Shown: piece by piece, positions 129 to 49,200 of the stretch
Position numbering within the stretch: the stretch's first letter is position 1
Layout: every line of letters starts with the position of its first letter
NCBI GenBank assembly: GCA_051294905.1
Contig: CM119372.1
Location: 23,934,001-23,994,000 of the forward strand
Direction: 5' to 3'
Origin: Botryllus schlosseri
Lineage: Eukaryota
DNA: 60,000 bases
Translations under genes and position numbers: made by a program
The notes under the pieces: generated by a model
Databases searched by the model: none
The model's input: only the letters and a program-made list of their open reading frames with translations
Told to the model about the DNA's origin: nothing

Positions 129-1345
129 CAGTGTTGCCAACTCCGGATGGAAGAAAATCGCCAAAACTGGTGTCAAAAATCGCTAGATGTTGCTAAATAT
201 TGAGAAAAGAGCGCTAAAAAATAGCGCTAGATCTACATTAATTGCTAAAGGTGTTAAATTGAACCATAATATCAATACACTCTTCTCAGCTGTATTTTAC
301 TCGCCTGGGGGCCAAAGTCACTTATCATATTTCTAGTTCATAATACGTAATATTCATCTCTAGGCGGAACAAAACGTGCAGTGCGTTTCGGTAGAGCGGA
401 TCGCTTTGCGCAATGATCGCTATACGTGACCACTGACCAGGTTTGCAGGCATAACCGCTCACTCTATAAGCGTGCCTTGCTCCATGCGTCCGTGAATAGT
501 GATGCGATGTACCGCGGAAATGCGCTTGACTTCTCGAAACTGAGTTGGAGTACTTGAACACGACATGCGACTTGACACACTTGTACGCAACATGCGACTT
601 GACCCGATACAACACGACTTGAACCGGGTTTGCCAGCCACTAAAAGTAGAGGACCAACCCGGAGTAAGAAATTTAATGAATCTGGTCTTAAACGCCAGTG
701 TCACACTGATTCCGACAATACGAATTAAATTCTTGTAAAGACAATGCAACGACCTCAAAGTAGCCCCAAGAGTCTGAAAATCGACATTGATCAGAACAAT
801 CGCTGGACGAAATTGGTCATTGTTATGTCCATTGTGTTGCGGCGGTGCCATTATTGAAGCAATGCTGGTTTTCAGACTTCGAGGGCTGTTTCGGGGTGCA
901 TGGTTCCATTGTCCTGACGAGATTTTATTTTGCATCTTCGAAATCACTGCGACACTAGCTTTCGATCAAGGCCAATCATATTAAATTGCAGCGCTCAGGT
1001 CGCCAGATGTAGCACTGTCAATTATGCTACTTTACACAGCAAGAAGAGACACTGTTTGCCCATGCGTAACCGCCAGGAGTTGCGTATCTATCCGTACGTT
1101 AGTAATCCATCATTAATTTCATTACATATCATTGGAGTCCGCACTCTGGTGGCAGATGAGTCGCCATAGTCGTCGGCCAGAACCGATCTTTATTAGTTAT
1201 TTTCGGTAAAAAGCGCTAAATAATCGCTAAATACCATTTCAAAAATCGCTAGATTTATCGCTGGGCGCTAGATCCATATTTTTAGCGCTAAACCGGATGA
1301 AAAATCGCTAGATCTAGCGCGAAAATCGCTAAATTGGCAACACTG
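129..1345. mobile_element. Non-autonomous hAT-type DNA transposon (1217 bp)
   Basis: TIRs CAGTGTTGCCAA / TTGGCAACACTG. Exact 8-bp TSD AACTGATT (121-128, 1346-1353). Subterminal AAATCGCTA(G) repeats. The uninterrupted target sequence is visible at ~2369-2380. Confidence 0.9.
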
Positions 1346-2982
1346 AACTGATTGTCTATAGCGAAATCAGTCGCTCTCGAGCGGCAAGTGCGTGGTGAGC
1401 TCGTGATCGATATGTGTATGTTACAGACGGGCAAAGCATTAGTTCGCCAACAGATCGATTCAAGTGGTACAATATACATCAGGGGTGGGCAAACTTTTGA
1501 GCTCGCGGGCCGCATTCAACATTTGAATCATTTCGCGGGCCGCACTATATAGAATTGGGATTCTAAACCAAACGCGATACAAACAGAAGTCCGTCAATGA
1601 GTCGATACAAAGTCTCGCTGTACGCAAATTAATGTACAACGACACTCCCCTTACAGCAGAACTATTTTGTCTGGACGGGGGTGGTCACGATTCGTTTCCG
1701 GACCCGGCGCAGATTTCATCAGTTTTGGTTAAACCCGGACTGGATGCGGCCAAGTGTCTTTGAGAGTTGGATTTATGTTACATTTTACCAGCCTAATACA
1801 TGGAAATACCAGGACTTTACGGGCCAGTCGGATTTTTTGGACTTTGATTTTGCAATCCTATAGTCGCAGTGGATTCCGATTTCGAAATCTCCCACTCTAC
1901 TTTACACCTCACCTCAGGCTATAGATCGTATCAGGTATGATCTGTCACAATTCATTCCCATTATTGCACCACCGAGCGCGTTTCAGCCAAATAAGGTCTG
2001 TCCACCCCGATGAAGCGAGCTACCCCGATTCGTCACTGGACAATTGAATCTGACATCGTACTCGCAGTTACCGAGCGCGAAAGCGAGGCTCGAAGGTGTG
2101 GCGCAGCAATTCTCTGACGGTAACACTTCGCCGGTTCAATATATCCGTAGTATGATGCTGCAAATATGCTCGGCGGTGTTGGCATAACATGTGTTGAGGA
2201 TATGTTACGACACACACGAGCACAACTGATTGTCTACAGCGAAATTAGTCGAATTCGAACGACAGCGCGTGGCTGCCGAAGCAATAGTTCCTTAGCATGA
2301 TATTGTAAATATGCTTGGAGGTGTTGGCATAACAAGTGTTGAGGATATATTACGGTACACGCGAACACAACTGATTGTCTATAGCGAAATGAGTCGCTCT
2401 CGAACGACAAGTGCGTGGTGAGCTCGTGATCGATCGTACATACCGGTAAAGCATTAGTTCGACAACTGATCGATTCAAGTTGTACATCATGTACAGCATA
2501 CAAAAATAATATACCGAGGTAAATTGTATATCATTTACAGACACCGGCATGATTACGCTTGACCAGACGTGAAGCAGTAGAAGAACCCATCACATTGTTT
2601 GGTTGGGACTGTCTGTCCTAATACGCTAGAAAGCGGTAAAGGTGTGGAACAGCAGTTTTTGCTTGCACCAATTACTACAATATCGGAAATTAACACGTTG
2701 ATGCGAGTCAAATTGAGAATGAGCTATTTCTTTAATTACTTATTATATTCTAAATGGTACTTTATTCAAGTTAATCTATGTCGGGGGCGCCTAATACCTA
2801 TTTCTAATACACGACATTCTGGTTCTCGATATGACTCAAAATAACACACATATTTATAACCAGAGCAGATCAATTCTCCTTACTATTTAAGTCGACAACA
2901 AAGCAAGAGCAAGTACGGCAGTATGGAACAGACTACACGCGTCACTATGCACAGCCGAACGTATAGACACCTAAAACACGCA

Positions 2983-46292: not shown

Positions 46293-49200
46293 CTAATACC
46301 GTTTGCTTGGAGCGATGTCATAATCCCTGAAGAAATTACGAACGACCAGTTATTACAATTTCGCAAACAGAGCATTATTAGCATATAATCAACAGTGGAT
46401 GAAAAATATCTTACTGCAAAGTAGTCAAATTCAGGAGCAAATTATTGGCGTCAAGGTAGACTTTATTTTGGGACTGCGACAGCTGAAACGGTAAAGGAAC
46501 AGAATTACGTAATACCAAAACAACACCAGCTCCAGCACAAAGATTCAATGCAATCCTCAACTTGGTCATTTGTTTCGCCAGTTGAATCGAGTATTGCTTC
46601 AATGTGAAGAGAGTCAAGCACAGAAATTGCAAACATTCAACAAATTTTGATGAACAATGACGGTGGTGCTACAACAACAACAACAACCCACAACCACTCG
46701 AGTCAGCTTACATGGGTAGGGTAGAATTTCATTTGTAGATTAGATCAATTTCGTAAATAAGGTCAGAGTTGAGCAGGTATAGAGGACATATTTGATTGAA
46801 ACATTCAAAATCACAAGGCCCTCAACTTAAACCGGTAATCAGTTGAACTTTTCAAAGAGACAACCTCATATTGCAAGTGACTAGTTCAGTCTAGACCAGA
46901 TTAGGGGTCATACTAAAAAGGCTTGGGAGAGGCCTACAAGGTAGCCTGAAACCCTACCGCTACACATCTCATGCGGAAGGACAATGAGCAATGCATAGAA
47001 TATCAACAAGCAGTCATGCTTCAGTAGCGTGGTCTGATAGCATCCCACAGAATAAATTCAGAAAACAAAATAAAATTTTACCGTTTTTGCAATGGATTGT
47101 GCGGCACGTATTCTTCGCAATTTCAAGTAAGCGGGATTCTTGCTGATAGCTTCGCCGATGTGTCAAATGGACAGAATCAAGGACCACAAAACGCCAGTTC
47201 AAAAACTACACACAGAGAATTTGCAAGGTTGCCATCAGATTACTAAATATTTCGGTCATATACAATTGCCGCCTCAAGGAAGCTTCGAAAACAATTAGGG
47301 TACAAGTGACTTTGTCCCTTCTCGTTCAAGTCAGGCGCACGGCGCTTCAGTGCCCTGAGAGTCTACACGAGAAGGCTGTTTCTTAGTACATGACTTTACA
47401 GAGGGCAGCCAACTGCCCATCGGGGGATTTCACAATCCTTTCCGATGGTCGGACGCGCCCACCAAGTTTACATGCACAGGGTTTTCGACGCCAAGGACGG
47501 CAAGAGATACCATTCGCCTTTGATCATCACACGACAACAATAGATCAAACATGCAAACAAGAAGGTACAAATCGGAAAAAAATTGCAAAGGATATCATTT
47601 TTGCGATTTGAGCTTCTCCCTCGGCTTGCACCACTTTCTCCTGCCGGTCTTGTTTCGCACGTTCCACCACAAACTGGGCTCTCTGTGCTTCCTGTTGAGC
47701 TGTTGAAAAGGAATACGAGTTGGCTATTTCAACTAGAGCCAAACCGATATTTGCATTCGTAGAAATATCATGGACCATTTTTTGGACAGCCCAATGACAT
47801 CATCACTTCATCTACTACGTTCTCTGATCATTACAATTATCCCAGGTATGTTTCTTGCTAAGCATTGGAAATTATTACCATGTTAAAATGTGCATTCTAT
47901 GCTATTGCTATGAAACGTTATGCGGCAGTACTGCCATATCAGTACACACCCCAGTTGACAGAGTCTGATTACAGGCTACTGCCATTCTGAAATTGGTGGG
48001 GGATCTAATTTCAATGCTAAATCACATTTATTTCACTAAACGCATGGATCGATATGTTCCATGCTCGATAACTGACAGAAGAAACATATCAGCTGGATAT
48101 TCACACAGTTCCGGGGCGCCGGCATTTCACTGTCATACCTTGAAGGGGCATCTCAGGTACAGGAACACGGACCAGAGAGACTTTTGAGACGCCCATTTAA
48201 TGATGTTAAACTCTAACTGAGCAACAACCCTTTCAGAGCCACAGTAGGGTGGAGTGAAAAATGAAAAATGGAAAATTTTGAATTTCAAAACGGACACTTG
48301 ATATGTGGTGCCAAATTAAAAAAAAATAATTTCTGTAATAATTTTGGAGTCATCCATCAAGCAATCTGAACCATCTTGCTCAATTCTGCATTGAGGTTTA
48401 TTGTCCGTCATGGTTTGAAATAAAAAGGCACGATTCCATTGTTGATGGTGCTAAAAACTTCTGCAACAAAGTTTCCCATGTTACTTAAAGCTTTCTAATA
48501 CACAATTCGTAACCTTGCACTATCTTTGCTACAACAAAAGGCATGTTTTGCACATCTGGGAATGCTCGGTGATGATGATGATGAAGGCCTCAGAAGACTT
48601 GCAAGACTACAACTATGAGCAGATCAAACAGAATATCAGATTCCAATTGACGACTTAGAAGGAGGATATGTTAATGAACCGAAACCTAAAAACAACGTTG
48701 ATACTAGAATCAGATTGTTAAAAATCCCAATTATAAACATCAAGGCCAAATCCTACCACTTAATTGTCAACTTGCATCTAAGAGATGCGGAACAGCCACC
48801 AGCAATCAAAAACTTTTCATATCTCGAACCGGAAAATCCAAGGTCATCACCATTAAGGATCAATCATCCTTGGCACAACCAGGCAGTGGAAAGAGACGTT
48901 AAAGTGGTGACCGAAGCATATGCCGATTGCCCATGTGTCGGGATTTGAACGTAGAGATGGCCTCATCACACAGAAACTGAAATCTCGAAAGCAGATGAAA
49001 TCCTTTATTACGAAACAAGATTTTAAAGTTTGTGCATAATAATACTCTGGTAGTGAAACCATATTCGAAATATTTTTTTTTTCAATATAGAATTGATGTT
49101 TTTGTGTTTTCAATATGGATTTGCAATTTATGTGCTTAAATATAGAGTTATCAGTCATAAGATCAATCACTACACGCTTTTGGCCTCTTAGCCTGCTTCA

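Follow-up and report, generated by a model that had tools for sequence, protein, structure and literature searches.

The locus described here lies in a 60,000-nucleotide (nt) stretch of the Botryllus schlosseri genome (GenBank assembly GCA_051294905.1, contig CM119372.1, positions 23,934,001 to 23,994,000 of the forward strand), which is referred to below as the window and is numbered from its first letter. On the minus strand of the window, two coding exons of the prohibitin-2 gene (PHB2) flank an intron with AT-AC termini, and within this intron lies a composite box C/D-H/ACA RNA with a predicted length of approximately 306-311 nt (Table 1). Taken together, the family match, the fold, the complementarity to the U5 small nuclear RNA (snRNA) of the same genome, the RNA reads and the position of the homologs make it probable that this is a real and functional guide RNA, encoded in an intron and belonging to the U85 (SCARNA10/SCARNA12) family, with a predicted activity on U5. 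The family is known, and the RNA is a new member of it in a conserved genomic position.

Table 1. Features of the PHB2 locus in the window, in the order of transcription, followed by the introns that carry the homologous RNAs
Feature	Position	Strand	Evidence
Prohibitin-2 exon ending ...AQIAKM, 5' of the minor intron	47596-47700	-	RNA reads and contigs, with loose ends at 47700
U12-type AT-AC intron of prohibitin-2, 436 nt	47160-47595	-	Splice joint and landmarks
5' splice site ATATCCTTT	47587-47595	-	U12-type consensus
Whole composite C/D-H/ACA RNA, including terminal stem	47228-47538	-	Rfam match 47230-47535 and folding
Terminal stem	47531-47538 with 47228-47235	-	Free folding
Box C, UGAUGA	47524-47529	-	Sequence and fold
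Post-C element AAAGGCGAA, complementary to U5 UUCGCCUUU (human nt 34-42), at the D' guide position	47513-47521	-	Pairing
Internal stem, 5' strand, with GGUA at the site of the homologs' D'-like box	47481-47510	-	Fold and alignment
5' H/ACA hairpin with pseudouridylation pocket	47386-47477	-	Covariation and fold
Pocket 5' strand AAACUU, pairing with U5 AAGUUU of variant B	47464-47469	-	Pairing
Pocket 3' strand GUAAAG, pairing with U5 UUUUAC	47394-47399	-	Pairing
Hinge UAAGAAACA, inexact H box (AAGAAA or AGAAAC)	47377-47385	-	Sequence and alignment
3' H/ACA hairpin	47318-47376	-	Fold
Box ACA	47313-47315	-	Sequence and fold
Internal stem, 3' strand, terminating in C'-like UAUGAC	47254-47292	-	Fold and alignment
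Box D guide GAAAUAUUUAGUAAU	47239-47253	-	Pairing with host U5
Box D, CUGA	47235-47238	-	Sequence and fold
Branch-site-like TCCTTGAT, then 16 nt to the terminal AC	47176-47183	-	Sequence
Prohibitin-2 exon, 26 residues, 3' of the intron	47082-47159	-	RNA joint and homology
L018 intron, ATATCCTT...TCCTTGAC...AA	1324-1868	RNA orientation	U12-type AT-AA, termini inferred from reading frame only
L026 intron, ATATCCTTT...TCCTTGAC...AA	1271-1844	RNA orientation	U12-type AT-AA, termini inferred from reading frame only
L027 intron, GTAAGT...pyrimidine tract and CAG	1225-1771		Ordinary U2-type GT-AG

The host gene was identified by comparison with solved structures, in which the flanking exons matched Prohibitin-2 (8rrh_B) with an E value of 3.7e-18 and Prohibitin 1 with only 2.4e-8. 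The upstream exon by itself had Prohibitin-2 as its best match in the PDB (6iqe_A, E 5e-10; residues 202-237 of 8rrh_B), and one of the flanking exons matched Band_7 of Pfam. When one raw RNA-seq run and three contig sets were mapped onto 46950-47850, a splice joint from 47157 to 47594 that skips 436 nt was found in all four, and this joint can be moved by 2 nt to give AT..AC on the minus, that is, the coding strand. Introns of the U12 type are characterised by AT-AC termini, the 5' splice site ATATCCTT and a TCCTTRAY branch site near the 3' end, and by this consensus the PHB2 intron is of the U12 type. The proposal in the original prediction that the RNA resides in a minor-class AT-AC intron of PHB2 is thus borne out by the joint, the splice signals and the exon matches.

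In a permissive Rfam scan of 46700-48100, snoU85 (RF01296) was the sole match reported, as the best-scoring family of clan CL00082 with one lower-scoring clan member suppressed. This match, on the minus strand at 47230-47535, spans the whole model (1-329 of 329) with an E value of 1.9e-6 for the 1.4 kb searched, and scores 32.3 bits against a gathering score of 41. The composite RNA of U85/U89 type that had been proposed from the letters alone was found on the minus strand and at essentially the same coordinates. In the host assembly (495.5 Mb) the RNA is single-copy by BLAST, and a search pattern that combined the D guide and box D with the 3' pocket strand matched only the window locus in the genome, with 1 + 1 matches for the reversed control; both searches are blind to a copy lacking the D guide, that is, one of a pure U89 type. 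A genome-wide snoU85 scan scored 26 of 17,431 candidates and missed the window's own copy, and is thus uninformative on paralogs.

Free folding of 47538-47228 recovered a terminal stem that joins UGAUGA and CUGA, a long internal stem, and a pair of hairpins with ACA after them, which is the layout of the composite family, with a two-hairpin H/ACA domain inserted between the C/D halves and ACA after the 3' hairpin. All of these parts had been recognised in the original prediction. The minimum free energy was -104.7 kcal/mol, compared with -86.9 +/- 4.7 kcal/mol for shuffled sequences (z = -3.81; none of 100 shuffles as stable). In H/ACA RNAs the distance from the pocket to the box follows a rule of 14-16 nt; by hand count, the pocket of the window RNA is separated from the H region by 15-16 nt, and ACA from the 3' pocket by 15 nt, both spacings being within this rule.

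U85 is described as a compound guide for the 2'-O-methylated C45 (Cm45) and the pseudouridine at position 46 (Psi46) of U5, and U89, or SCARNA12, as an independent Psi46 guide (PMC5733568). The host genome gave 48 Rfam matches for U5 above the cut-off. Most of these fall in arrays that repeat in tandem about every 1008 bp (loci L006-L008 and L032-L040), which lie on G000:C10 at about 7.357-7.396 Mb on the plus strand and at 7.55-7.58 Mb on the minus strand. Among the 22 distinct U5 copies that were read, the loop I core CGCCUUUUACUAAAG is present in all, one copy being altered just upstream of it. Variants A and C, which together make up 18 of the 22 copies, read ...AUCUUUCGCC...AAAGAU..., and variant B, found in the other four (L002-L004 on G000:C16 and L029 on G000:C11), reads ...AACUUUCGCC...AAAGUU..., so that a U-A pair of the stem closing loop I is replaced by A-U in a compensatory flip.

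Three elements of the RNA had been proposed to be complementary to U5, and all three pair with the host's own U5 genes. The box D guide pairs at 13 of 14 positions with variants A and C and at 12 of 14 with variant B (duplex energy -10.3 to -10.7 kcal/mol), and opposite the fifth base upstream of CUGA stands the C of UUUAC, the equivalent of human C45, as in the dual guide of U85. The two strands of the pocket in the 5' hairpin leave a U-A dinucleotide unpaired, the U of which corresponds to human U46, as in the pockets of U85 and U89; the fit is perfect with variant B and includes one A.A mismatch with variants A and C. The AAACUU pocket is thus perfect only for variant B, whereas the D guide fits the other variant better. 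This window-specific pocket base and U5 variant B may reflect co-evolution of guide and target or a variant-specific modification. The third element, located immediately after box C (post-C element), forms nine contiguous Watson-Crick pairs with U5, or 12 of 15 with the flanks included, and its duplex (-14.9 kcal/mol) is stronger than that of the D guide (-10.3 kcal/mol). By shuffling, a run of nine pairs was obtained in 14 of 20,000 cases in that 20-nt slot and in 61 of 2,000 cases anywhere in the RNA. For the pocket of the 3' hairpin, a search of U5 by eye only gave no canonical bipartite fit. The fit of the D guide and the 5' pocket to the host U5 agrees with the proposal that guides for both C45 and U46 have been retained, their function being predicted from these pairings.

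The RNA reads are consistent with the excision of this RNA from a spliced intron on the strand of the host gene. In run X3, five contigs cover 47216-47509, that is, they are confined to the RNA body, with the intron flanks at 47160-47215 and 47510-47593 uncovered, and their summed depth over the RNA body is about 15-47 per bin, compared with 9.65 for the contig of the spliced mRNA. In the raw run X23, of which about 6% was read, four reads with two different starts map to 47446-47538, the flanks being free of reads. In runs X1 and X2 the intron is retained in a contig whose depth is about 1% of that of the spliced form. The coverage of the RNA body fits a stable RNA excised from the intron, on thin evidence. 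The public runs also contain a second haplotype over 47165-47479 of the window, with nine substitutions in the RNA, two in the 3' intron flank, and two 1-nt deletions in one contig. All three of its variants at paired positions preserve the pairing, and none of the nine touches a box or a guide.

Homologs were sought in metagenome contigs by a pattern in which box C was combined with the 3' pocket strand and with the D guide plus box D; it returned 19 loci, compared with about two estimated by chance. Thirteen of these match snoU85 over its full length and score 42.6-56.6 bits, which exceeds the gathering score, namely a group of ten near-identical loci (L010, L011, L014, L016, L019, L020, L021, L023, L024 and L028; 45-54 bits), referred to as the L010 group, and the separate loci L018, L026 and L027. 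When the exons of the window were used in a tblastn search, PHB2 exons were found on both sides of the RNA in L018, L026 and L027, and the RNA occupies the same PHB2 intron in each, after an exon ending in ...M or ...L and before one starting with I/VG.... Judged by the reading frame, the introns of L018 and L026 end in TAA, and such AT-AA termini are a rare U12 subtype. The L027 intron looks like a U12-to-U2 conversion in which the guide RNA would have been retained. The distance from box D to the 3' splice site is 75 nt in the window, 75 nt in L018, 68 nt in L026 and 98 nt in L027; an optimum of this distance for intronic box C/D RNAs was reportedly described by Hirose and Steitz in 2001, and the observed 68-98 nt are near that optimum. 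Since three independent homologs share the intron and one copy is detectable in the host genome, the view of PHB2 as an old home of a U85-type RNA gains support from these sequences. The original prediction had gone further and suggested that this may be the ancestral U85/U89 locus, a suggestion with which the data are compatible.

Each homolog, when folded separately, gave the same composite layout. Since a full-length MAFFT alignment misplaced the 5' hairpin of the window RNA, this hairpin was analysed as a module, and the covariation count refers to it only, the terminal stem, internal stem and 3' hairpin being assessed by the separate folds of the homologs. In the module (eight rows), RNAalifold predicted 16 pairs, of which 12 show changes on both sides. 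Furthermore, 94.5% of the cells of this alignment are paired, compared with 74.7% in shuffles (none of 500 as high) and 35-54% with slid partners. Boxes and strands that were part of the search pattern are conserved by construction. Outside the pattern are the 5' pocket strand UAAUCUU, present in all seven aligned homologs, and the GGC after box C, present in L018, L026 and L027. The L010 group is without the post-C GGC element and has a second UUUAGUAAUC inside the 3' hairpin; no PHB2 exon was found by tblastn within 1.5 kb of its members, and none of the 26 open frames of L010 and L014 matched Pfam, in a scan that took 43 of the 64 listed frames and excluded those overlapping the RNA and some short ones. 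Two further loci of the pattern search, L012 (which adjoins a MoeA_C exon) and L022, are U85-like by eye and gave no Rfam match at E <= 0.01, and were excluded from all counts. Loci L013, L015, L017 and L025 were rejected as bacterial chance matches, tmRNA being near three of them and L025 being without an Rfam match and protein-coding by eye.

Several observations weigh against the identification of the window RNA as a functional member of the U85 family. The snoU85 score is below the family cut-off, and at gathering thresholds Rfam gave no match in the whole 60-kb window. The expression evidence consists of one run, the RNA status of which is guessed but which has a spliced contig, and of four raw reads; the contigs extend 12 nt beyond the predicted 3' end and fall 26-29 nt short of the predicted 5' end. 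Four of the eight rows of the covariation analysis belong to a single group of near-identical sequences, and the alignment used to count covariation also supplied the structure. In the D guide, an A stands opposite G50 of U5, where all homologs have C, and the A.A mismatch of the pocket, which reads AAUCUU in every homolog, concerns the predominant U5 variants. No strict ANANNA H box is present in the hinge, which is one base off in either register, while the homologs L018, L026 and L027 have AGAGUA, AGACAA and AGAGGA at this place. This one-base deviation in a degenerate motif is a weakness and no exclusion. The Cajal body (CAB) box has the form ugAG in the apical loops of H/ACA hairpins; no canonical CAB motif was found in either apical loop of the window RNA, which read UGUGAA and CUGAAG, with UGAA in place of the expected UGAG, and therefore a localisation to Cajal bodies is inferred from the snRNA target only.

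These departures could alternatively indicate an expressed but partly decayed guide, in which the methylation guide would be kept and efficient pseudouridylation and/or targeting to Cajal bodies would be lost. The inexact H box, the apical loops, the pocket mismatch with 18 of the 22 sampled U5 copies and the loss of the homologs' D' box all point in this direction, as does a case described in Xenopus, in which one of the two U85 copies, with an impaired H-box hinge, gave only Cm45, the impairment being linked to the loss of Psi46 activity (Deryusheva and Gall 2018, PMC5733568). In contrast, the pocket is perfect for U5 variant B, which accounts for four of the 22 copies, the hairpin, the pocket geometry and ACA are intact, and no second copy was found in the host genome by BLAST or by the guide-strand pattern. 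In addition, the homologs that score above the Rfam cut-off are, by eye, mostly also without a clean UGAG. Partial decay is improbable, and a functional U85-type guide is the preferred reading.

The comparison with known RNAs places this guide close to both U85 and U89. Like U85/SCARNA10 of human, Xenopus and chicken and the Drosophila scaRNA:MeU5-C46, it has the composite layout and is intron-encoded, and it shares with U85 the D guide for U5 C45 and the 5'-hairpin pocket for U46. The length of the fly U85, 316 nt as inferred from PMC13228274, compares with about 306-311 nt for the window RNA. Conservation of U85 across vertebrates and invertebrates has already been published (PMC6984369). 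The window RNA differs from U85 in its Rfam score below the cut-off, its inexact H box, its UGAA loops, the A opposite G50, and AAACUU instead of AAUCUU. Moreover, its host is PHB2 and not NCAPD2, intron 3 of which is given as the host of chicken U85 (PMC2653536). In its host gene it resembles U89/SCARNA12, which is reported to be processed from a PHB2 intron, contains H/ACA and C/D boxes and guides U5 Psi46 (PMC10618143, PMC5733568); according to these sources U89 guides Psi46 only and is 270 nt long in human, whereas the window RNA also has the 13-of-14 methylation guide. Judging from Niemela et al. 2014 (PMC4066798), the PHB2 intron that harbours human SCARNA12 would be expected to be of the U2 type. 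L018, L026 and L027 are like the window RNA in the position of the PHB2 intron, the range of box D distances and the GGC-containing post-C element; unlike it, they have recognisable H boxes and D'-like boxes and score above the gathering score. A literature search found no paper that links Drosophila U85 to a prohibitin intron.

From the splice signals and from what is known of the family, the following course of events is likely. The RNA would be transcribed within the prohibitin-2 pre-mRNA, would be released upon removal of the 436-nt AT-AC intron by the minor spliceosome, and would then be trimmed to about 306-311 nt and protected by box C/D and H/ACA proteins. The box D guide would place the C45 equivalent of U5 loop I for 2'-O-methylation, and the pocket of the 5' H/ACA hairpin would place the adjacent U46 equivalent for pseudouridylation. 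The location in the PHB2 intron would be inherited and its U12 class incidental.

The original prediction had suggested that release of a U5-modifying guide from a minor intron could couple minor-splicing activity to U5 maturation. For such a regulatory device it could be argued that the PHB2 intron has kept its U12 class in three of the four loci with the RNA (the window, L018 and L026), and that U5 is common to both spliceosomes (PMC12084885). However, the suggestion is not supported. In L027 the intron at this position is of the GT-AG type and still contains the RNA, and the location of chicken U85 in NCAPD2 also argues against it. Furthermore, human U12-type introns appear devoid of annotated non-coding RNA genes according to Niemela et al. 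2014 (PMC4066798), and the PHB2 minor intron itself is old, being present in fly and mouse. Because this intron is conserved in its own right, its co-occurrence with the RNA is explained by descent, and in view of L027, chicken NCAPD2 and the human U12-type introns, the U12 class looks inherited and not required. Regulatory coupling is thus very unlikely, and inheritance of the location is preferred. A literature search returned, among the papers considered, no statement of a U85-type RNA or small Cajal body-specific RNA (scaRNA) in a U12-type intron, although the older scaRNA literature may have it, and the terms snoRNA, scaRNA and U85 do not occur in two Drosophila papers on minor introns (Pessa et al. 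2010 and PMC7644725). The remaining explanation, a chance resemblance or a dead relic that gives no stable RNA, could appeal to the score under the Rfam gathering cut-off and to the fact that no listed sequencing run is on record as RNA, and is dismissed as extremely improbable in the face of an E value of 1.9e-6 over the full model, three independent U5 complementarities, conserved synteny, covariation, and the restriction of contigs to the RNA body in a run in which the spliced mRNA is present as well.

The post-C element is most likely an accessory clamp in the window RNA, which would grip the 5' strand of the U5 stem, with the 3' strand and the loop being taken by the other guides. Accessory clamps in box C/D guides were reportedly described by van Nues et al. 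in 2011. Alternatively, the U85 family might have a third, overlooked guide, of which the element would be the remnant or the working form. This would be a C/D' guide directing 2'-O-methylation of U5 G37, a reading that we consider doubtful. In the homologs, the C of a shared AGGC is followed by four bases and then by a D'-like box, which is CUGA in L027, CCGA in L018, CGGA in L026 and guGA in the Rfam consensus. Since the C that pairs with G37 is the fifth base upstream of the D'-like box, G37 would be at the methylated position if this were a C/D' guide. In addition, a C'-like box is located just 5' of the D guide, both in the window (UAUGACCG, 47254-47262) and in the homologs L018, L026, L027 and L010 (GUGAUGAG, UGUGACGA, UGUGAUCA and UAUGAUUA, respectively), and one also precedes the D guide in the Rfam consensus; the composite order may be read as C - D' guide - D' - H/ACA insert - C' - D guide - D. 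When a CUGA-like box was looked for five bases past the guide base in the window RNA, GGUA was found, and no recognisable D' box is present at or near the expected place. It may be that the D' box was lost in the window RNA while the complementarity grew to 9-12 pairs; in this RNA the element may serve solely as a clamp. Gm37 of U5 is described as conserved from fly (Gm38) to human (PMC13228274) and appears without an assigned guide in Table 1 of a 2021 review (PMC7960923), and it has been reported by Deryusheva and Gall (PMC5733568) that Xenopus U85 methylated an extra U5 position. A literature search for a described guide for U5 G37 gave nothing relevant.

For annotation, the gain is a U85-family guide that is missed at default Rfam thresholds. 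One particular intron of prohibitin-2 is the home of this RNA in at least four organisms, and PHB2 as the original host of the vertebrate U85/U89 pair is compatible with this distribution. If the D'-guide reading of the post-C element is true, the family would provide a candidate guide for the orphan and conserved Gm37 of U5. The locus also shows that a minor-class intron can be the source of a guide RNA. The similar spacing of box D and the 3' splice site, at 68-98 nt, suggests that the minor spliceosome, like the major one, can support position-dependent assembly of box C/D particles.

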